Position numbers and translations under genes: made by a program. Below, piece after piece: positions 1 to 16,360 of a stretch of 16,360 nucleotides of DNA. This DNA comes from a virus. Each line of letters opens with the position of its first letter. Position 1 is the stretch's first letter. The stretch lies in the UHGV virus genome UHGV-0072940, one strand, 5' to 3'. The notes beneath the pieces are model-generated. The model searched no databases. It was not told the origin of the DNA and worked only from the letters and a program-made list of their open reading frames with translations.

Positions 1-53
1 TATTTGCAGTTTTCGCAGATGATGTCGGTGATACTTCGTCGCTGTCGCCTCAT
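1..53 (-). CDS. nin-region ORF, 5' end only (runs off the window start); possibly NinE-like
   Basis: ATG at 53..51 on the minus strand overlaps the TGA stop of the methyltransferase gene (ATGA coupling). The frame MRRQRRSITDIICENCK stays open to position 1. The NinE assignment is from memory and unverified. Confidence 0.4.
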   Translation of the reverse strand, partial: MRRQRRSITDIICENCK

Positions 54-577
54 GCCGCCCTCCTGACGCCCTGCCCGATCGCCATCAATGCCGCTTTGGA
101 TACGGTAGTAAACATCCGTCGAGGACTGATGAACGGTCGCCAAATCAGCAGCATGGAACCTTTGCTGTTTCCCTTCTTCTCCAGCCCTGTCGATGGTTCG
201 ATAAAATTAATCCGTCCATCAGTGATGATGCGAACTTCGTCAACACTCTCCAGAGCCTTACTGAACCATCCGACAGACATATCCTCTGGCACAAGCATCA
301 CTACCGTCTGTCGTTGTTGTATGCACTGCTCAGCGGCTTTTTCCACCCACGGCCTGATATTGCTGTACGGTGGGTTATTCCAGATTGCACCGTGGCTTAC
401 CCACTCAGAATTGAGCGCGTCGTCGGCCTCAGTTAGCCAGTGAGCACACAGAGCATTTTTGTCGCTCGCTGCCGAATCCAGCCAGAATCCAAACTCAATA
501 TCCAGTGCATCAAAAAGCCAAAGCGGCGTTTGCCAGCAGTCCTTGTCGTGTGCTGGCGTATTTGATTTGATAGTCAT
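50..577 (-). CDS. phage DNA N6-adenine methyltransferase (Dam-like, orphan)
   Basis: Six-frame ORF 50..604 contains the NPPY motif (AIWNNPPYSN) typical of N6-adenine methyltransferases. Start chosen at ATG 577..575, which overlaps the NinB stop as ATGA; the upstream ATG at 604 is an alternative. Confidence 0.75.
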   Translation of the reverse strand: MTIKSNTPAHDKDCWQTPLWLFDALDIEFGFWLDSAASDKNALCAHWLTEADDALNSEWVSHGAIWNNPPYSNIRPWVEKAAEQCIQQRQTVVMLVPEDMSVGWFSKALESVDEVRIITDGRINFIEPSTGLEKKGNSKGSMLLIWRPFISPRRMFTTVSKAALMAIGQGVRRAA

Positions 578-1020
578 GCAGCCTTCCCTTTTCGTTGTGA
601 CCATTCATACTCTCGCCAGGAGTCATCACTCCACCGCACGTTGCGCTCTGAGCCGAACCAGAACATGATTTCGATAAGCTCAGTCATGCTGGCCTTCCGC
701 ATTTTGCTGGTGCGCACACCAAGCATGACAACGCCACCGCCGATACCAGGCGCACTTCGTTGCTCCAGTTTTTTGGTCTTAAGCCACAGGGCAGTGAACA
801 GGTCTTTCCAGTCTTCCGGCGCCAGCCGTTGACCATGCCATAGCACCTGACGCGAAACATCGTTCAGCATCGGCCACATACGGTCATTCTGCGCTTTGCT
901 GCGCTTGGGTTCTTTAACGTGGACTTCGTGGGGTGACTTGTCGTCGATGGGTAGTGAGAGAATGGCGTCTATGGCGTTATTTCTGATTGCTTCGTTGCGA
1001 AGCAGAAAGGTTTGCTTCAT
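574..1020 (-). CDS. ninB: NinB (Orf-family recombination mediator)
   Basis: Translation from MKQTFLLRNEAIRNNAIDAIL to WSQRKGKAA is collinear with lambda NinB as recalled (148 vs 146 aa). Start placed at the internal ATG 1020..1018, preceded by a GGAG-type RBS; the six-frame ORF extends further upstream but that part lacks NinB similarity. Confidence 0.85.
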   Translation of the reverse strand: MKQTFLLRNEAIRNNAIDAILSLPIDDKSPHEVHVKEPKRSKAQNDRMWPMLNDVSRQVLWHGQRLAPEDWKDLFTALWLKTKKLEQRSAPGIGGGVVMLGVRTSKMRKASMTELIEIMFWFGSERNVRWSDDSWREYEWSQRKGKAA

Positions 1021-1213
1021 CTCCTGCTCTCCGGTTCCATTTTTCAGCCGCCGCAGCAACTGATGGTGCCCATGCCCCCCTGGCTTCACAGAGGTCACAT
1101 TCTGCATAGCCCCACACATCAATATTTATTCCGGCCTCAACCCACAGACGAGCATTACCGCCGCAAAACGGACATTCTTTTAGCTTTGGCTGGGTTAATG
1201 ATAGGTCGCTCAT
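977..1213 (-). CDS. Lar-family restriction alleviation protein (small zinc-ribbon)
   Basis: 78-aa product MSDLSLTQPKLKECPFCGG...YAECDLCEARGAW with a CPFCGG / CDLC pattern as in Lar/RalR-type proteins. ATG at 1213..1211 with GGAG RBS. The 3' end overlaps the ninB start by 44 nt in another frame. Confidence 0.65.
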   Translation of the reverse strand: MSDLSLTQPKLKECPFCGGNARLWVEAGINIDVWGYAECDLCEARGAWAPSVAAAAEKWNRRAGDEANLSASQRSNQK

Positions 1214-1223
1214 GCTCACTCCT

Positions 1224-1439
1224 TTACTTAAAATCCAGACTCCGGATAATTCTGTTGCGCTGAAACTCATTGTTGAGTTTGAACAACCGTCGAAGAACAC
1301 GGTCACGCGGATAGCGTCGTGCGGCAGGTGAATGCTCATACAACTCATCAAGCGGCAAACTGGACGATGAACGATACCGATACCAACGCACCAACTCTTC
1401 ACGAAAATTAGCCCTGACAAGCTCAGCTATCGTACTCAT
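1224..1439 (-). CDS. hypothetical protein, 71 aa, Arg-rich
   Basis: ORF with GGAGG RBS about 10 nt upstream of ATG 1439..1437. No recognisable motif. Lies between the tR2-like terminator and lar, a position that is empty in lambda. Confidence 0.5.
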   Translation of the reverse strand: MSTIAELVRANFREELVRWYRYRSSSSLPLDELYEHSPAARRYPRDRVLRRLFKLNNEFQRNRIIRSLDFK

Positions 1440-1465
1440 TTCTTAAAGCCTCCAATTACTCTTCC

Positions 1466-1499
1466 TCAAATAAAAAGGCCTGCGATTACCAGCAGGCCT
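1466..1499 (-). terminator. rho-independent terminator, tR2-like (after ren)
   Basis: 8-bp perfect stem AGGCCTGC (1476..1483) / GCAGGCCT (1492..1499) with an 8-nt loop. On the minus-strand transcript it is followed by UUUUUAUUU; the plus strand has no U tract, so it is unidirectional. Confidence 0.65.
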
Positions 1500-1524
1500 G
1501 TTACAAGCTCAGTGATGTAGATGG

Positions 1525-1815
1525 TCATCTTTTAACTCCATATACCGCCAATACCCGTTTCATCACTGCACTCTGGCGACACTCCTTAAAAATCAGGTTC
1601 GTGCTCACCTTTCCTTCCCGTTCTTCCCTGGTAGCAAACCGGTAATACACCGTTCGCCAGACCTTACCATCAATGACAAGGATTCCTGCCCGCGCCATTT
1701 TAGCCGCAGCCTGATTTATACTGGTTACGGTTGCGCCTGTTAGCGCGGCAACGTCCGGCGCACAGAAGCTATTATGCGTCCCCAGGTAATGAATAATTGC
1801 CTCTTTGCCCGTCAT
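1525..1815 (-). CDS. ren: Ren protein
   Basis: 96-aa product MTGKEAIIHYLGTHNSFCAPDVAALTGATVTS matches lambda Ren as recalled. Same length as lambda ren (291 nt). ATG overlaps the P stop (ATGA). Confidence 0.85.
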   Translation of the reverse strand: MTGKEAIIHYLGTHNSFCAPDVAALTGATVTSINQAAAKMARAGILVIDGKVWRTVYYRFATREEREGKVSTNLIFKECRQSAVMKRVLAVYGVKR

Positions 1816-2513
1816 ACACTTGCTCCTTTCAGTCCGAACTTAGCTTTAATTTCTGCGATCTTCGCCAGCGCCTGAACATGATTTAGAGGTCTGCCGCCCA
1901 TGACAGGAAGTTGTTTTACTGGTTCAGGGATCGCCTCACCACGGTTAATTCTCGCAGTCATATGGACAAGCTCATCTGCGGCCTTACGGCGTAATTCCGC
2001 ATCAGTAAGCGCATTGGCCCGCATGTTCTGATACAGGTTGGTAACCAGCCAGTAGTGCGCGTTTGATTTCCACGGATAAGACTCCGCATCCGGATACAGG
2101 CCTCGCTTCCGGCAATACTCGTAAACCATATCAACCAGCTCGCTGACGTTTGGCAGTCCGGCGATAACGGATGCTTCTTCCCGGCACCATGCAACAAACT
2201 GCCCGGGTGATGGCAGAAATGGTCGATTCTGCCGACGGGCTACGCGCATTCCTGCGTTAACCTGTTCCATTGTGGTGATCCCGTTTTCCCGGAAAGCCAG
2301 AACCCACTGGCGGCGGATTTCGTTCAGTTCGTTCTGGTCACGGTTAGCCAGACTCGCCGGGAAAGTTGCCAGTAACTGGCTGAACACACCGTTGATGATC
2401 TGCGCAACCTGCTGTACCTGCGGCTTTTCGTCGTACTGTTCCGGCATGTTGTTGGCGATCCGACGCATCTGCTCACGGTCAAAGTTAACCATCTGTGCGG
2501 CGATGTTTTTCAT
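1812..2513 (-). CDS. P: replication protein P (DnaB helicase loader)
   Basis: 233-aa product MKNIAAQMVNFDREQMRRIANNMPEQYDEKPQVQQVAQIINGVFSQLL is near-identical to lambda P as recalled. 702 nt, as in lambda. ATG overlaps the O stop. Confidence 0.9.
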   Translation of the reverse strand: MKNIAAQMVNFDREQMRRIANNMPEQYDEKPQVQQVAQIINGVFSQLLATFPASLANRDQNELNEIRRQWVLAFRENGITTMEQVNAGMRVARRQNRPFLPSPGQFVAWCREEASVIAGLPNVSELVDMVYEYCRKRGLYPDAESYPWKSNAHYWLVTNLYQNMRANALTDAELRRKAADELVHMTARINRGEAIPEPVKQLPVMGGRPLNHVQALAKIAEIKAKFGLKGASV

Positions 2514-3448
2514 AAATCCACCCCGTAAATCCAGTCAGTGTTTGTCAGGTCGAGTTTTGGTTTTCCAGCTGTCACGCCAGCCTGTTGCTTGTTACGGTTG
2601 ATTTCGAGTTGGGTCCACTTGTCGCGGAGTTTGGCCGGACTTAGCACGTTACCGGACCAGAAGTTGTCCTGGCATGCCCAGCGGAACAGCACGCACATGT
2701 CGCGGTGGTTACGTCCGTCACGTTCACGCATCAGGCGGATATCGTTAGCCCACCCTGCAAAATTCGGTTTTCTGGCTGATGGTGCGATGGTCTTCACCAT
2801 GTCAAACATCCACTCTGCGGCGGTCAGGTCTTCTGCTGTTCCCCACTTGCTGCCGCTCTGAATTGCAGCATCCGGTTTAACCACAGAAAGATCGTTTTCT
2901 GGCTGGTCAGAGGATTCGCCAGAATTCTCGGACGAATAATCTTTTCTTTTTTCTTTTGTAATAGTGTCTTTTGTGTCCCCCTGTTTTGAGGGATAGCAAT
3001 CCCCTAATTTGAGGGATGTTTTATCCCTCGTTTTAGGGGATTTTCCCTCGTTTTGAGGGATGTCCCTCATTTTAGGGGAACCTCCCTCGTTTTGAGGGAT
3101 GCACCATTCTGAGGTGTTTTTATTTGGTCCAAACATGCCGCCTTGCTGCTTGATAATATTCATTCTGACGAGTTCTAACTTGGCTTCATTGCACCGTTTG
3201 ACGGGTAACTTTGTAATCTCGCTAAGTTGAGAATCGGTGATTCTGTCCATTGGTTTATTCCACCCATAGGTTTTACGCAGAATGGCAAGCAGCACTTTAA
3301 ACTGTCGCTTGGTCAGATCTGCGCCTGAATAAGCCTCAAGCAGCATATTTGATAGTCTGGCGTAACCATCATCGAGATCTGCCACATTACGCTCCTGTTC
3401 GGCAAAGTTACCTCTGCCGAAGTTGAGTATTTTTGCTGTATTTGTCAT
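2510..3448 (-). CDS. O: replication initiator protein O
   Basis: 312-aa product. The N-terminal (MTNTAKILNFGRGNFAEQERNVADLDDGYARLSNMLLEAY) and C-terminal parts match lambda O; the central part is encoded by the iteron array. GGAG RBS 7 nt upstream of ATG 3448..3446. Confidence 0.9.
   Translation of the reverse strand: MTNTAKILNFGRGNFAEQERNVADLDDGYARLSNMLLEAYSGADLTKRQFKVLLAILRKTYGWNKPMDRITDSQLSEITKLPVKRCNEAKLELVRMNIIKQQGGMFGPNKNTSEWCIPQNEGGSPKMRDIPQNEGKSPKTRDKTSLKLGDCYPSKQGDTKDTITKEKRKDYSSENSGESSDQPENDLSVVKPDAAIQSGSKWGTAEDLTAAEWMFDMVKTIAPSARKPNFAGWANDIRLMRERDGRNHRDMCVLFRWACQDNFWSGNVLSPAKLRDKWTQLEINRNKQQAGVTAGKPKLDLTNTDWIYGVDL
2976..3100. repeat. ori iterons, about 6 copies of a ~19-bp O-binding repeat, with an adjacent AT-rich region at 2930..2975
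   Basis: Tandem units of the form tCCCTCnttTTgAGGGAt at about 2976..2994, 2999..3017, 3023..3041, 3043..3061, 3062..3079 and 3081..3100, all inside the O reading frame. They are followed, in the direction of O transcription, by an A/T-rich run (aataatcttttcttttttcttttgtaatagtg). Confidence 0.8.
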
Positions 3449-3458
3449 AATGACTCCT

Positions 3459-3535
3459 GTGGATTGATCCAGTAATTCCCTCAGAATTGCATATCAATTT
3501 GCTTAGAGTCCCCGGCGGCCACCGGGGATTTTTTC
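3459..3535 (+). ncRNA. oop: OOP-like antisense RNA (about 77 nt) with its promoter pO and terminator
   Basis: Plus-strand promoter-like hexamers TTGAGT (3424..3429), 16-bp spacer, CATAAT (3446..3451). Intrinsic terminator: stem CCCCGG (3510..3515) / CCGGGG (3522..3527) followed by TTTTTT. The transcript is antisense to the 3' end of cII and lies in the O-cII gap, as lambda oop does. Confidence 0.6.
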
Positions 3536-3777
3536 TTTGTGATTTCATCAAGCGCATACTTAAAAGCCCTGCTAATCGGACTGATGTCTGATGCCATTCC
3601 GAAAGCACACAGGACCGAAGCAATAAACCGCCAGTCCGTTCTGCTTATCTTCGATTCATGACAGCCAATCATCTTTGCCAGACCGCGCTGGGTAAGCGTT
3701 GACAGGTTGATGAGTAAATCAGTTTCAGCGCGATCAATTTCTCGCTGTGATAGTTTGCTGTAACTTGTTTGTTCCAT
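3481..3777 (-). CDS. cII: CII-like transcriptional activator
   Basis: 98 aa. The C-terminal KKKSPVAAGDSKQIDMQF resembles lambda CII KKRPAATERSEQIQMEF, there is a central HTH-like segment, and the gene sits between cro and O. Divergent from lambda CII overall. Confidence 0.7.
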   Translation of the reverse strand: MEQTSYSKLSQREIDRAETDLLINLSTLTQRGLAKMIGCHESKISRTDWRFIASVLCAFGMASDISPISRAFKYALDEITKKKSPVAAGDSKQIDMQF

Positions 3778-3790
3778 TTCTTAAGATTTC
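3755..3790 (+). promoter_or_regulatory. putative CII-dependent establishment promoter (pRE-like)
   Basis: TTGC-N6-TTGT direct repeat at 3755..3768 inside the first codons of cII on the opposite strand, with a weak -10 candidate TAAGAT at 3782..3787. The orientation would send transcripts antisense through cro into cI. Confidence 0.4.
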
Positions 3791-3862
3791 CAATAGTGAA
3801 TAGTTAGTTGAAAGGTATGCGTGGAAACGCATGTGGCCTTAGTTGGTCAGATATATTGGGAC

Positions 3863-3908
3863 TCGCTTTGTCAGCGACGTAGGACGAATGTCCATTGTGA
3901 AAAGAGCG
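3863..3908 (-). promoter_or_regulatory. nutR: boxA, spacer hairpin, boxB
   Basis: Minus-strand reading: boxA CGCTCTTTT (3908..3900) 8 nt past the cro stop; a spacer containing a GGAC/GTCC hairpin (3882..3893); CTACG; then boxB UCGCUGACAAAGCGA (3877..3863), a 5-bp stem with a GACAA pentaloop. Confidence 0.6.
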
Positions 3909-3915
3909 GTGTTAC

Positions 3916-4143
3916 TTATGCAGCCAGAAGGTTCTTTTTGCTTATTTCAAGCATTTCGCTTGCTTGATATTTGCCACCAGAAATCTCTTCGATTTTTGAT
4001 GCGTATTTAGTTTTCCCAAAAAACTCAGTCTTAGGGAGGAAGCCGTTTTTGAGCCACTTATAGACAGCCCTTTCGCTAACTCCACAAGCCTTCGCAACTT
4101 CAGGGATGCCGACACCTTTAATCGGCTCATCAAGATTTTGCAT
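3916..4143 (-). CDS. cro: Cro-like repressor (HTH)
   Basis: 75-aa product with HTH segment GIPEVAKACGVSERAVYKWLKNG. First gene of the PR operon, divergent from cI. AAGGA RBS upstream of ATG 4143..4141. Confidence 0.75.
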   Translation of the reverse strand: MQNLDEPIKGVGIPEVAKACGVSERAVYKWLKNGFLPKTEFFGKTKYASKIEEISGGKYQASEMLEISKKNLLAA

Positions 4144-4221
4144 AGGAATATCCTTTTTCGTACTTTCAGTACGTATTATGGTTGAACTGAAAGTTTTTGC
4201 AAGTGCTTTAGTATCGTACTC
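4144..4221. promoter_or_regulatory. OR operator region with divergent PR (minus) and PRM (plus)
   Basis: PR on the minus strand: -35 TTGCAA (4197..4202), 16-bp spacer, -10 CATAAT (4175..4180). Dyad sites: CGTACTTTCAGTACG (4159..4173) and GAACTGAAAGTTT (4184..4196), centres 24 bp apart; a third dyad AGTATCGTACT (4210..4220) overlaps a PRM -10 candidate TAGTAT (4208..4213). The cI ATG at 4222 is about 8 nt from that -10, so the cI mRNA is probably leaderless. Confidence 0.6.
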
Positions 4222-4929
4222 ATGGTTCAGAATGAAAAAGTGCGCAAAGAATTCGCCCAGCGGCTAGCGCAAGCCTGTAAAGAAGCTGGTCTTGATGAAC
4301 ATGGTAGGGGAATGGCTATAGCCCGTGCCCTTTCTCTTTCGTCCAAAGGCGTTAGCAAATGGTTTAATGCTGAGTCTTTACCGCGTCAGGAAAAAATGAA
4401 TGCGCTTGCGAAATTTCTAAACGTTGATGTTGTTTGGCTTCAGCACGGCACTTCGTTAAATGGAGCGAATGATGAAGATACTCTTTCATTTGTTGGCAAA
4501 TTAAAAAAAGGGTTAGTGCGCGTGGTTGGTGAGGCAATTCTTGGTGTTGATGGTGCCATCGAGATGACCGAAGAGCGCGATGGGTGGCTCAAAATTTATA
4601 GCGATGATCCAGATGCCTTTGGTCTTCGTGTGAAAGGAGACAGCATGTGGCCCAGAATAAAATCAGGAGAATATGTACTCATTGAGCCTAACACCAAAGT
4701 ATTCCCGGGTGATGAGGTGTTTGTCAGAACCGTTGAAGGACACAACATGATTAAGGTTCTTGGCTATGACAGAGATGGAGAATACCAATTTACAAGCATT
4801 AACCAGGATCACAGGCCTATAACGTTGCCTTATCATCAAGTAGCAAAGGTGGAGTATGTAGCTGGTATTCTGAAGCAATCTCGCCATCTGGATGACATCG
4901 AGGCAAGGGAGTGGCTGAAAAGTTCGTGA
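4222..4929 (+). CDS. cI: CI-type prophage repressor (N-terminal HTH, C-terminal S24/LexA-like peptidase domain)
   Basis: 235 aa. N-terminal HTH region, C-terminal GDSMWP serine motif with a downstream Lys (NMIKVLGYD). Divergent from cro across an operator region. Not lambda immunity by sequence. Confidence 0.85.
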   Translation: MVQNEKVRKEFAQRLAQACKEAGLDEHGRGMAIARALSLSSKGVSKWFNAESLPRQEKMNALAKFLNVDVVWLQHGTSLNGANDEDTLSFVGKLKKGLVRVVGEAILGVDGAIEMTEERDGWLKIYSDDPDAFGLRVKGDSMWPRIKSGEYVLIEPNTKVFPGDEVFVRTVEGHNMIKVLGYDRDGEYQFTSINQDHRPITLPYHQVAKVEYVAGILKQSRHLDDIEAREWLKSS

Positions 4930-4989
4930 CTTCATCGTCACATAGCTGGTAACCAGTGGCCAGAAGAAACGTTTGGGTGAGGAGGATAG

Positions 4990-5331
4990 ATGGCGTTCAC
5001 TGACCTTGAATATCAAGCGGTCAAAAAAGAAGTTCACCAATTCATTGAAAGCATAAGGCCGCCTGAACATATCCGCAATGAACTGGATATTGTTTATAGC
5101 ATCAATGACCAAACGATAGATATCGGCGAACAGCGCCCCGTGTGGCAGGGCAACCCAGGTGAAACAAACATCCTGCCATCAGCAAGAATCAAGTACATAC
5201 GTTCTCTGGATAGATGGAAAATCTATTGGATGCGGAAGGATATGAAATGGCATCAGTACAGTACTGAACTTTCGCTGACTGATGCGCTTGAGCTTGTGCG
5301 TGCTGACCCGGATTGCTGCTTCTTCGGATGA
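4990..5331 (+). CDS. hypothetical protein A (113 aa), first gene of the cI-linked operon
   Basis: Strong RBS GAGGAGG 5 nt upstream of ATG 4990. No terminator between the cI stop (4929) and this gene. No recognisable motif. Confidence 0.6.
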   Translation: MAFTDLEYQAVKKEVHQFIESIRPPEHIRNELDIVYSINDQTIDIGEQRPVWQGNPGETNILPSARIKYIRSLDRWKIYWMRKDMKWHQYSTELSLTDALELVRADPDCCFFG

Positions 5332-5401
5332 GTGAAGAGACGTTTGGATGATGGATGGTCGCAGAGATGCTCGTAGAGCATACAGCGATGCAGGAGAATT
5401 T

Positions 5402-5836
5402 ATGGCACTTAATTTAGAAAGAATATCTTTTATAACCCCATTTGATAGCAGCGAAGAACCCAACCAACCGACGCTTAATTTTACATGCAATGAATTTCCT
5501 GCGCGGCTATCAATTGATTTCAGGGTTGGTATGATCGGGTTGAAACCAAATTCAAGATATAATTTGGGTATTATGGTAATCCCCGCGCACCTAATTATAA
5601 AAAAAGGTGAGGAAATTCAATTCCCTGACGGCTCTTCGGAATCAGTTTCACTTTTCATCGATACGAAAGATAGCCATTTTGAAACAGGGGTTGGCGGACA
5701 GGTAATAGTAACATTGAAAGAAATTAGGGTCCCAGCTAAAGGGCTGTATAGTGTTATAGGGATATTGCAAGATAATGAAGACCCTAAAAATGAACTTCAT
5801 AAAAATGAATCATTTTTCACCGTAGAGCTATTATGA
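5402..5836 (+). CDS. hypothetical protein B (144 aa), second gene of the cI-linked operon
   Basis: Start placed at the internal ATG 5402 preceded by AGGAG (six-frame ORF begins at 5348). AT-rich coding sequence. Stop overlaps the next start (ATGA at 5833..5836). Confidence 0.55.
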   Translation: MALNLERISFITPFDSSEEPNQPTLNFTCNEFPARLSIDFRVGMIGLKPNSRYNLGIMVIPAHLIIKKGEEIQFPDGSSESVSLFIDTKDSHFETGVGGQVIVTLKEIRVPAKGLYSVIGILQDNEDPKNELHKNESFFTVELL

Positions 5837-6453
5837 GTGACGACAGTAATTTAAATAATCATGGAAAGCAAGACACCAACATATCTGAAAGCCGGAGGTT
5901 GAAGGTTGTTGGCGGTTCTGATTTTGAGGCTGAATTTGATAATTCTCCCACCAAGGTGCAAAATAATTACATAAAACCGCCACAAACGGAGGAAGAAGTG
6001 GGAACGATCAGCAGAGAGGAACTTGATGCTCGCTTAGCTGCTAATAAAGCAGAGATGGAGTCTATTGCTTCCTCCATTAGGGCTGACATGGCTCTATCTC
6101 GTGAAAGCGTTAATGTCCAATTTGCATCACTTAATGCAGCCATAAGCTCTCTATCGTCCAAGATCGATGGAAAGATGGATAGCGCTGCTGGCGATATAAA
6201 AGCAATTAATGGGAGATTCGAAGGAATTCAAGGACAAATAACAGGGGTTAATACCGCAATTAGTGGTGTTCAGTCGGGTATTTCTATACGATTAGCCATT
6301 TTTAGTGTCATTATCGCTGTAATAGTTGCGATTCCCGGGCTGGTATCAGCTTTAAAGTCAGACCACGCACCTTTGCAACAGCCTTCCACTTTGCAAGCGC
6401 CGCCACAAAATACCCAGCCAACAGACAACAAAAAAATCACTCCCCAGCATTAA
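5833..6453 (+). CDS. hypothetical membrane-anchored protein C (206 aa), third gene of the cI-linked operon
   Basis: Translationally coupled to B. Polar N-terminus, long Ala/Ser/Ile-rich helical segment, one hydrophobic span LAIFSVIIAVIVAIPGLVSAL near the C-terminus, then a Pro/Gln-rich tail. Confidence 0.6.
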   Translation: MSDDSNLNNHGKQDTNISESRRLKVVGGSDFEAEFDNSPTKVQNNYIKPPQTEEEVGTISREELDARLAANKAEMESIASSIRADMALSRESVNVQFASLNAAISSLSSKIDGKMDSAAGDIKAINGRFEGIQGQITGVNTAISGVQSGISIRLAIFSVIIAVIVAIPGLVSALKSDHAPLQQPSTLQAPPQNTQPTDNKKITPQH

Positions 6454-6460
6454 CGCATTA

Positions 6461-6488
6461 ACCCGGCTTCCGCGCCGGGTTTTCTTTG
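6461..6488 (+). terminator. rho-independent terminator closing the cI operon
   Basis: Stem CCCGGC (6463..6468) / GCCGGG (6474..6479), 5-nt loop, then TTTTCTTTG, immediately after the stop of gene C. Confidence 0.65.
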
Positions 6489-14013: not shown

Positions 14014-14268
14014 ATGCAGACAATCATCTATCAGATAACCCCCAGCAAATGGTGTACGGAGAGAGTCCTTATTGCATCAACAGGGCTAAAGCCCGGCACC
14101 ATCGAGCGGGCCAGGAGAAAGTCATGGATGCAGGGAAAAGAATACCGCCATTACGCTGTAGAAGGTGATCCTGGGCATTACAGTGAATGCCTGTACAACA
14201 TCGAAGAAATTATGCGATGGATCGAAAACCAGAAACAACCAGGTGCCAAAAATGCAAGTTCCGGTTAA
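14014..14268 (+). CDS. putative excisionase / recombination directionality factor
   Basis: 84-aa basic protein immediately upstream of, and co-oriented with, the integrase. GAGG RBS. Called by position and size; it does not resemble lambda Xis. Confidence 0.5.
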   Translation: MQTIIYQITPSKWCTERVLIASTGLKPGTIERARRKSWMQGKEYRHYAVEGDPGHYSECLYNIEEIMRWIENQKQPGAKNASSG

Positions 14269-14301
14269 CCTGTTAATGCTCCTGGACGTCTGGGAGGTTT
14301 A

Positions 14302-15588
14302 ATGAGTAACGTATCATACCCGACAGGCGTTGAAAACCATGGAGGATCACTCCGTATATGGTTTCACTATAATGGCAAACGTGTCAGAGAAAACCTCGGT
14401 GTTCCTGACACCGCCAAAAACCGGAAGATCGCAGGTGAACTTCGCACTTCCGTTTGTTTTGCAATCAGAATGGGGAGTTTCGACTACGCCACACAGTTCC
14501 CTAATTCCCCTAACCTGAAACACTTTGGTCTGGGAAAAAGAGAGATAACCGTTAAGGCACTTTCGGAAAAATGGTTGGACCTTAAGAAAATTGAGATTTG
14601 TGCGAATGCACTTAATCGTTACCAGTCAGTAATTAAAAACATGTTGCCTATGTTGGGTGAGAAAAAACTGGTTTCATCCATAACAAAAGAGGATTTACTT
14701 TTCGCAAGGAGAGATTTGTTGACCGGTTACCAAAAGCTTTCTAATGGAAAGATTTCTTCCATAAAAGGGCGCTCAGTGGTCACAGTAAACTACTATATGA
14801 CAACCATAGCTGGAATGTTTCAATTTGCAACAGATAATGGTTATACCTCAGGAAACCCATTTAACGGTCTGGCTCCCTTAAAAAAGTCCAAGGTAAAACC
14901 AGATCCTCTCACCCGTGACGAATTTATTCGTTTTATTGAGGCTTGCCGTCATCAACAAACAAAAAACCTGTGGATTCTCGCTGTATACACGGGTATTCGT
15001 CACGGGGAGTTGGTATCGCTGGCATGGGAAGATATAGACCTTAAAGCAAGGACTATAACCATCCGTAGAAATTATACAAAACTTGGCGAATTCACTCCAC
15101 CAAAAACCGATGCAGGCACCGGAAGGACAATTCATCTGGTTCAACCAGCTATTGATGCTCTTAAAAGCCAGGCGGAAATGACCATGCTTGGAAAGCAACA
15201 TTCTGTAGAGGTGAAGCAGAGGGAATATGGGAGAACTGCTGTGCATAAATGCACTTTTGTTTTTAGTCCTCAGGTAACAAAACAGCAGCAGTTGTCCGGA
15301 CCTCACTACAAGGTTGACTCCATCAGGGAGTCATGGACAAGTATCTTAAAACGCGCAGGTCTGAGACACAGAAAATCGTACCAATCCAGGCATACTTATG
15401 CATGCTGGTCACTTGCCGCTGGAGCTAATCCTAGTTTTATCGCAAGCCAGATGGGCCACACAAACGCACAAATGGTATTCAATGTTTACGGAGCATGGAT
15501 GAAAGACAACAATCACGAACAGATAGAACTCCTTAACAAAAGACTATCTGAAAGTGTCCCATGTATGCCCCATAAGAAAGTGGGGTAA
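14302..15588 (+). CDS. int: tyrosine-type site-specific integrase
   Basis: 428 aa. The C-terminal catalytic region carries the conserved residues in the expected order (R in YTGIRHGEL, HTYACW, GHTNAQMVFNVYGAW with the tyrosine nucleophile). GGAGG RBS. Larger than and distinct from lambda Int. Confidence 0.9.
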   Translation: MSNVSYPTGVENHGGSLRIWFHYNGKRVRENLGVPDTAKNRKIAGELRTSVCFAIRMGSFDYATQFPNSPNLKHFGLGKREITVKALSEKWLDLKKIEICANALNRYQSVIKNMLPMLGEKKLVSSITKEDLLFARRDLLTGYQKLSNGKISSIKGRSVVTVNYYMTTIAGMFQFATDNGYTSGNPFNGLAPLKKSKVKPDPLTRDEFIRFIEACRHQQTKNLWILAVYTGIRHGELVSLAWEDIDLKARTITIRRNYTKLGEFTPPKTDAGTGRTIHLVQPAIDALKSQAEMTMLGKQHSVEVKQREYGRTAVHKCTFVFSPQVTKQQQLSGPHYKVDSIRESWTSILKRAGLRHRKSYQSRHTYACWSLAAGANPSFIASQMGHTNAQMVFNVYGAWMKDNNHEQIELLNKRLSESVPCMPHKKVG

Positions 15589-15662
15589 AATAAAAACTTG
15601 TAAAATCAGTTAGTTTACCCTTAATCCCTGTCACGTTACGCGCGTGGCAGAGGCGTTACGGA
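15589..15662. other. prophage-host junction (att region) at the integrase-proximal end
   Basis: The integrase stop is followed within about 40 nt by the point where similarity to a MerR-family HTH (PVTLRAWQRRYGLLKPQRTDGGHRLF) begins in the downstream frame. The exact core cannot be placed without the other prophage end. Confidence 0.5.
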
Positions 15663-16310
15663 TTGCTGAAACCGCAACGGACAGACGGCGGTCATCGGCT
15701 GTTCAACGATGCCGATATTGACCGGATCCGCGAGATCAAACGCTGGATCGACAACGGCGTGCAGGTCAGCAAAGTTAAAATGCTGCTCAGTAATGAAAAT
15801 GTTGATGTGCAGAACGGCTGGCGCGATCAGCAAGAAACATTACTGACTTACCTGCAAAGCGGCAATCTACATAGCCTGCGAACGTGGATCAAAGAGCGCG
15901 GTCAGGATTACCCCGCCCAGACACTCACCACACATCTGTTTATTCCTCTGCGCCGACGGCTTCAGTGCCAACAACCGACTCTCCAGGCGCTGCTGGCGAT
16001 CCTCGACGGCGTACTGATCAACTACATCGCCATTTGTCTGGCTTCGGCACGTAAAAAACAGGGTAAAGATGCGCTGGTGGTTGGCTGGAATATTCAGGAT
16101 ACCACCCGTCTGTGGCTGGAGGGCTGGATTGCCAGTCAACAAGGATGGCGCATTGATGTCCTCGCCCACTCGCTCAATCAACTACGCCCTGAACTATTCG
16201 AAGGCCGTACATTGCTGGTGTGGTGCGGTGAAAATCGAACCTCCGCCCAACAGCAGCAACTCACCAGTTGGCAAGAACAAGGCCATGATATTTTCCCACT
16301 CGGCATTTAA
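15627..16310 (+). pseudogene. mlrA: MerR-family transcriptional regulator, 5'-truncated by prophage insertion (mlrA/yehV-like)
   Basis: The frame encodes PVTLRAWQRRYGLLKPQRTDGGHRLFNDADIDRIREIKRWIDNG and continues to a stop at 16310. Upstream in frame there is no ATG or GTG before a stop at 15591, so the first ~15-20 codons of the HTH are missing. The mlrA assignment rests on recollection that Stx-type lambdoid prophages insert in yehV; the paralogue bluR cannot be excluded without a search. Confidence 0.6.
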
Positions 16311-16360
16311 TGATTCGTTAACAAATGCGCTTTACTGTACAATCCTTTCGTTAACATAAG

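Follow-up and report, generated by a model that had tools for sequence, protein, structure and literature searches.

The right-hand end of the sequence analysed here (UHGV-0072940; the whole stretch of 16,360 nt is referred to as the window) carries an excisionase gene and a tyrosine integrase gene, followed by a short phage-derived arm and the distal part of a bacterial regulatory gene (Table 1). Homologues of the excisionase are annotated as xisR or excisionase in the matching genomes and in VT1-Sakai. The integrase contains an Arm-DNA-bind_2 domain (PF12167, residues 7-70, E 3.3e-24) and a Phage_integrase domain (PF00589, residues 203-396, E 4.9e-18), and the motifs GIRHGE, QSRHTYA, MGHTN and NVYGAW were spotted by eye in its translation. 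This integrase-side xis-int module adjoins the junction with the host gene.

Table 1 Features at the junction between the prophage and the host gene.
Feature	Position	Strand	Basis
xis, excisionase, 84 aa	14014-14268	+	Pfam DUF1233 putative excisionase, E 2e-29
int, tyrosine integrase, 428 aa, stop codon 15586-15588	14302-15588	+	Pfam
Candidate arm-type Int-binding site AAAGTGTCCCATGTATGCCCCAT, 23-mer	15551-15573	+	Repeats in attP; inside the int 3' end
Phage-derived arm between int stop and core, 38 nt	15589-15626		Alignments; holds the in-frame TAA and the ATC used by PGAP
20-bp att core CCTGTCACGTTACGCGCGTG, common to phage and host	15627-15646		att alignments, AP000400 annotation
Distal mlrA (yehV), codons 17-243 and stop codon	15627-16310	+	K-12 MlrA identity, Pfam, annotation in matching genomes
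First canonical in-frame start, TTG (MlrA codon 29)	15663-15665	+	ORF listing; putative 215-aa product

The window as a whole is a mosaic lambdoid early region. It holds genes for a DNA methyltransferase, ninB, ren, P, O, cII, cro and cI, the last encoding an S24/LexA-type repressor. From cI onwards there are three accessory ORFs, N, cIII, kil, gam, bet and exo, and from exo onwards a TraR/DksA-like gene, an Ea22-like gene, DUF551, DUF4222, xis and int. The left end of the window is the nin region (NinB, DNA methyltransferase), and the Q-stx-lysis region lies beyond it. The best phage matches to the window are JLK-2012 (87% coverage, 97.9% identity) and BP-4795 (76%, 97.2%), followed by 933W-type Stx2 phages over positions 1-12784.

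The three accessory ORFs (4990-6453, plus strand) occupy the interval from cI (4222-4929) to N (6950-7333), where lambda has rexAB and 933W-type phages have stk. The DUF3024 protein encoded by the first (4990-5331) matches the PADLOC candidate defence family PDC-S43 (E 7e-42), while the other two, 5348-5836 (PHROG 5893) and 5833-6453 (PHROG 5820), gave no Pfam family above the cut-off. The segment may be a prophage-encoded defence or moron cassette. The cI-N region of JLK-2012 and of the 933W-type phages contains IS629 and stk, which encodes a serine/threonine kinase, whereas the window has the DUF3024 gene and the two ORFs. Residues 145-243 of the Ea22-like protein (12013-12783) match the PADLOC profile 'DpdH' (E 1.4e-36, profile positions 13-111 of 127). 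Since other Dpd components were not seen, this match probably reflects a shared coiled-coil or ead/Ea22-type segment and not a Dpd system. The gam ORF (9175-9591) encodes 138 aa, of which the PHROG gam profile covers residues 41-138 only, and the homologue in 14EC017, a genome with a prophage in mlrA, has 98 aa; the true gam start is probably an internal ATG near 9295.

To the right of the integrase, the translation of positions 15627-16307 gives 227 residues with 0 mismatches to residues 17-243 of E. coli K-12 MlrA (100% amino acid identity), and the stop codon of this frame is 16308-16310. Because of this identity we identify the split host gene as mlrA (yehV), the curli and biofilm regulator of E. 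coli. The same identity, together with the MlrA-specific Pfam domains, ruled out bluR (ycgE) as the split gene. The two C-terminal domains, MlrA_helical (PF22270) and MlrA_C (PF22267), are both full length in the window product (E about 1e-32 and 1e-33). In intact MlrA, Pfam places the MerR HTH at residues 4-72 (MerR_1, PF13411, profile positions 1-68) and 5-42 (PF00376, positions 1-38, 46.6 bits). In the window product only positions 16-68 of MerR_1 are matched, positions 1-15 being lost, and PF00376 is reduced to positions 14-38 with 26.2 bits, below its gathering cut-off of 28.2. The product does not hold a complete MerR-type winged HTH by Pfam and, since both profiles are incomplete, we classify it as a truncated member of the MlrA family.

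The Pfam placement puts the break between helices 1 and 2 of the HTH. Exactly 16 mlrA codons (MALYTIGEVALLCDIN) are absent, including the first helix of the HTH, and distal mlrA stands here without its native promoter, ribosome-binding site and start codon. A preliminary description of the window, made from its letters, had recognised a MerR-family regulator, possibly mlrA/yehV, whose host-type sequence begins inside the HTH about 40 nt past the integrase stop with the first 15-20 or so codons missing. The identity to K-12 MlrA and the Pfam domains agree with that account and sharpen it to mlrA, 38 nt, 16 codons and the loss of MerR_1 positions 1-15. In K-12 the gene order is btsS-mlrA-yohO-yehW. 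The window stops 50 nt past the mlrA stop codon, before yohO; in the matching genomes yohO-yehWXY follow downstream and btsS lies beyond the prophage.

Alignment to unoccupied mlrA loci, which had been suggested along with the preliminary description, both confirmed the gene and defined the att core. In base-level alignments unbroken identity with empty mlrA begins at 15627, and the sequence to the left of this base is common only to occupied genomes and phage records. The 38-nt arm has no similarity to empty mlrA loci and is identical or nearly identical in occupied genomes and VT1-Sakai. The identity opens with the 20-bp core, CCTGTCACGTTACGCGCGTG, which lies inside mlrA codons 17-23. One copy is present in the window, against 0 expected by chance, and a search of the window with up to 3 mismatches allowed found no second core copy or far junction. 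GenBank AP000400 labels precisely this 20-bp stretch 'attachment site of Enterobacteria phage VT1-Sakai', and the same record describes yehV as 'divided by the insertion of prophage'. The YYZ-2008 record notes a 'direct repeat due to prophage insertion', and that of JLK-2012 places attL at the int-mlrA junction.

Empty attB has a single copy of the core, as does each prophage junction that was compared. The junction in the window reads GTTTACCCTTAATC-CCTGTCACGTTACGCGCGTG-GCAGAGGCG. The int-mlrA junction of 14EC017 is 100% identical to it, and a second core copy is found ~28.5 kb away at the far junction, beside btsS, which reads ATGGCGCTTTACACAATTGGTGAAGTGGCGTTGCTTTGTGATATTAAT-CCTGTCACGTTACGCGCGTG-ACGCAACATTTTT. 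In a four-way att alignment the 20-bp core is shared, and the phage and host arms around it change places between the two junctions. At the far junction of 14EC017 the proximal mlrA fragment would stop after 22 codons at a phage-borne TGA. The 14EC017 prophage is itself a remnant of ~28.5 kb, in which the lysis genes are followed by IS1 and soon after by the far junction (loci 1-9036 and 1-20247); int and xis are present and no head or tail genes are annotated. Thus, mlrA can stay split by a remnant without virion structural genes.

The attP core region, taken from the phi330 record, reads CCTGTCACG TTACGCG CGTGACGCAAC, with inverted half-sites GTCACG and CGTGAC around a 7-bp spacer. At the window core, GTCACG and CGTG(A/G)C flank TTACGCG at 15636-15642. 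Core-type sites of a lambda-type tyrosine integrase are expected to be arranged in this way around the overlap region, and strand exchange would probably take place within TTACGCG. The 23-mer AAAGTGTCCCATGTATGCCCCAT recurs twice on the opposite arm of the reconstructed phi330 attP, with 91% and 74% identity, and its kernel ATGCCCCAT, with an expectation of 0.03, is found 3 times in the 4.3-kb phi330 locus. A single copy falls in the window, which is not significant by itself. Given the Arm-DNA-bind_2 domain of Int, these repeats are reasonable candidates for arm-type sites. The 'complete genome' of phi330 (vB_EcoS_phi330, PV189401.1) has the 20-bp core twice in perfect tandem (2826-2865), which is probably an artefact of joining prophage ends that each carried a core copy and not a real attP. 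We rejected the record as a clean attP for this tandem core and used it for arm sequences only.

An A/T-rich inverted repeat, GGGTAAA (15583-15589) and TTTACCC (15613-15619), spans the int stop codon and the arm to the left of the core. It is kept in phi330, where its 12-nt arms are 92% complementary. Because no T-run comes after it, the repeat could serve as a binding site for a protein such as IHF or Xis, or form a weak hairpin.

We compared the integrase, arm and core with those of known phages. The int gene and arm (14302-15700) share 97.9-98.9% nucleotide identity with VT1-Sakai, YYZ-2008, JLK-2012, phi330, 1447, WGPS2, BP-4795 and PhiR5_1, among which 1447 and WGPS2 are Stx2a phages; JLK-2012 (O55:H7 DEC5E) and BP-4795 (O84:H4) carry the same integrase as the window. 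For VT1-Sakai (Sp15, or CP-933V; the Stx1 prophage of O157:H7, AP000400) the identity is 98.6% over 1,399 nt, the 20-bp core is identical and at the same position in yehV, and the xis-int arrangement is the same. VT1-Sakai differs from the window by a few arm substitutions, such as that at 15608, and by its mosaic early region. The stx position of the prophage analysed here lies outside the window, beyond its left end, and Stx-negative phages with this integrase exist, for example the 14EC017 remnant. By its integrase and core, the window prophage is assigned to the Stx-type lambdoid phages that integrate in yehV/mlrA.

Comparison with lambda Int and attP-attB reveals the same general design: a tyrosine integrase that has an N-terminal arm-binding domain and is encoded next to xis, a short core whose inverted half-sites probably enclose a 7-bp overlap, and candidate arm sites that recur on the two attP arms. 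However, lambda integrates between gal and bio with no gene disrupted, whereas the core in the window sits within coding sequence and the lost 5' end of the host gene is not replaced by the phage. In addition, unlike in lambda, the candidate arm sites overlap the int 3' end, and int stops 38 nt from the core.

We examined how the remaining part of mlrA could be read. In the mlrA frame, the translation from 15588 is K*KLVKSVSLPLI-PVTLRAWQRRYG; in full it is K*KLVKSVSLPLIPVTLRAWQRRYGLLKPQRTDGGHRLF, open until the stop codon at 16308-16310. A TAA interrupts this frame at 15591-15593, and the first ATG, GTG or TTG after it is the TTG at 15663. A GAGG lies ~9-10 nt upstream of this TTG (by eye), which is a candidate start only. 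A phage-supplied MlrA N-terminus is ruled out for canonical starts by the TAA and by the missing start codons before 15663. An intact regulator N-terminus in frame, which the preliminary description had named as a finding that would speak against it, was not found, the TAA being present and 16 codons absent. Its claim that the preceding codons are phage-derived and lack a start codon holds for canonical starts but not for the minor table-11 starts that PGAP uses, namely ATC at 15624-15626 and, in O157 strains, ATT at the equivalent of 15609. Base 15608 is G in the window and A in O157, giving GTT here and ATT there. Reading of the sequence revealed no Shine-Dalgarno-like motif upstream of the ATC or the ATT. 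Consensus scans, which are weak evidence, detected no sigma-70-like promoter in 14200-16360 and no plus-strand terminator-like site between int and distal mlrA.

We propose, with a probability of about 0.93, that the window ends at the integrase-proximal att junction of a 933W/VT1-Sakai-type lambdoid prophage, site-specifically integrated in mlrA, and that full-length MlrA is thereby blocked. The gene identity, the breakpoint, the core, the integrase family and the prevalence of the junction come directly from the data. The tyrosine integrase would recombine attP with the identical 20-bp sequence inside mlrA. Integration would split the gene, taking the promoter and codons 1-22 to the far prophage end, outside the window, and leaving codons 17-243 downstream of int. 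With promoter, ribosome-binding site, start codon and HTH helix 1 missing from the distal piece, the integrated prophage would prevent the cell from making full-length DNA-binding MlrA. In the lysogen csgD would be less activated by MlrA, and curli and biofilm formation would fall with it. Since the core is duplicated exactly, excision by Xis and Int would rebuild an intact mlrA.

That prophage insertion in mlrA limits csgD, curli and biofilm expression was published in 2013-2018 (PMC5931665, PMC3874044). PMC5931665 describes loss or reduction of curli, biofilm and Congo-red binding through the insertion (citing Uhlich 2013, Uhlich 2016, and Shaikh & Tarr 2003). It also describes regeneration of native mlrA by spontaneous or induced excision, including restoration by Stx1 prophage excision in strain PA20 (Uhlich et al. 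2016, as cited there). Published O157:H7 and other STEC strains have the insertion in the same gene, at the same proximal point disrupting the DNA-binding motif, with the same predicted consequence. Among non-O157 STEC it was present in 4 of 19 strains; mlrA in trans restored curli in two, while two O145 strains were not complemented, the phenotype depending on background such as rpoS (PMC3874044). The effect on curli and biofilm anticipated in the preliminary description matches these O157:H7 and non-O157 insertions (PMC5931665, PMC3874044). For the window, the phenotype and its reversal by excision would carry over from this literature on other strains.

The truncated gene could also be expressed as such. 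On induction, read-through from int or pL would then yield an N-terminally truncated MlrA, with translation starting at, for instance, the TTG at 15663, and this protein would influence csgD-dependent traits without binding DNA; such a role adds to the proposed block of full-length MlrA and does not replace it. The scan result between int and distal mlrA is consistent with such read-through, and MlrA_helical and MlrA_C are complete. Run-off transcription can reach distal mlrA, whose expression increased 20- to 62-fold upon SOS induction, but csgD was not raised despite this high level (PMC5931665). According to work cited there, recombinant distal fragments restored some Congo-red affinity but not biofilm, and they raised or lowered CsgD-dependent properties according to temperature and fragment length. 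However, these effects came from plasmid-expressed fragments and the TTG start is putative. We regard this reading as tentative and rather unlikely. Its more specific form, in which truncated MlrA is a phage-controlled, non-DNA-binding modulator of the csgD/c-di-GMP switch, made by int read-through on induction, appears improbable. If true, the insertion would rewire biofilm regulation rather than be a simple knock-out. This idea is only partly new, as literature hints exist for O157:H7 PA20 and a possible regulatory role of truncated MlrA has already been raised. The preliminary description had presumed the regulator inactivated. The loss of HTH helix 1, promoter and start codon bears this out, but not as an absolute statement, because no terminator-like site was found and the distal fragment is transcribed on induction and is partly active in published work.

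RefSeq/PGAP labels truncated mlrA as a non-pseudogene 'HTH-type transcriptional regulator MlrA'. In 14EC017 the annotated protein has 228 aa and an ATC start equivalent to window 15624 (locus 20225-20911, WP_042101647.1), and in O157 AR-0427 it has 233 aa and an ATT start where the window has GTT at 15609 (locus 3210-3911, WP_027868261.1). Such calls imply a working MlrA, started in the arm and carrying a short new N-terminus, and the product does keep MerR_1 positions 16-68 and both C-terminal domains. However, ATC and ATT are very rare initiators, here with no Shine-Dalgarno-like motif upstream, the native promoter lies at a distance of tens of kb, and the scan of 14200-16360 detected nothing resembling a promoter. 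Moreover, HTH helix 1 is gone, PF00376 scores below its gathering cut-off, and experiments have demonstrated curli and biofilm loss with rescue by wild-type mlrA or by excision (PMC5931665, PMC3874044). We judge the PGAP starts to be annotation artefacts, because a Shine-Dalgarno-like motif is lacking and the experimental literature contradicts function, and consider it very unlikely that mlrA stays functional. Should the three sampled annotations be representative of all 458 occupied genomes, surveys of gene presence would count mlrA as intact in them.

Finally, we investigated the prevalence of the junction by megablast of window positions 15400-16360 against 5,426 complete E. coli genomes, 5,424 of which matched. 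The junction was counted as spanned when a match covered at least 80% of the query, which was the case in 458 of the 5,426 genomes (~8%). The three junction-spanning genomes sampled are annotated 'tyrosine-type recombinase/integrase' followed by mlrA. Homology to the 4,900+ unoccupied genomes begins at the junction; these, K-12 derivatives included, match only from query position 222, equivalent to window 15621, in a feature annotated mlrA. The position of the prophage in the 5' end of the regulator gene, as first described, is thus borne out by the identical junction in these 458 genomes and by the core annotated in AP000400. The 16.4-kb window is matched over its full length by none of the complete E. 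coli genomes, the best reaching 90% coverage at 97.1% identity, which is ordinary lambdoid mosaicism. An assembly chimera, or a rearrangement that is not site-specific, placing phage DNA beside mlrA could be suspected from this partial coverage and from the single junction visible in the window, but is almost certainly wrong, given that 458 independent complete genomes and several deposited phage or prophage records with an annotated att site have the junction and that the breakpoint falls exactly on the 20-bp core.

The insertion is correct but already known, being annotated in GenBank (AP000400) with its phenotype characterised in 2013-2018. Occupancy of mlrA by a prophage is an established cause of the low curli and biofilm production of most clinical O157:H7 strains and some other STEC, and it doubles as a typing marker for Stx-phage insertion sites. 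The junction places the source strain of the window among the ~8% of complete E. coli genomes in which mlrA is occupied, and a curli-low phenotype, reversible by excision, is predicted for it.
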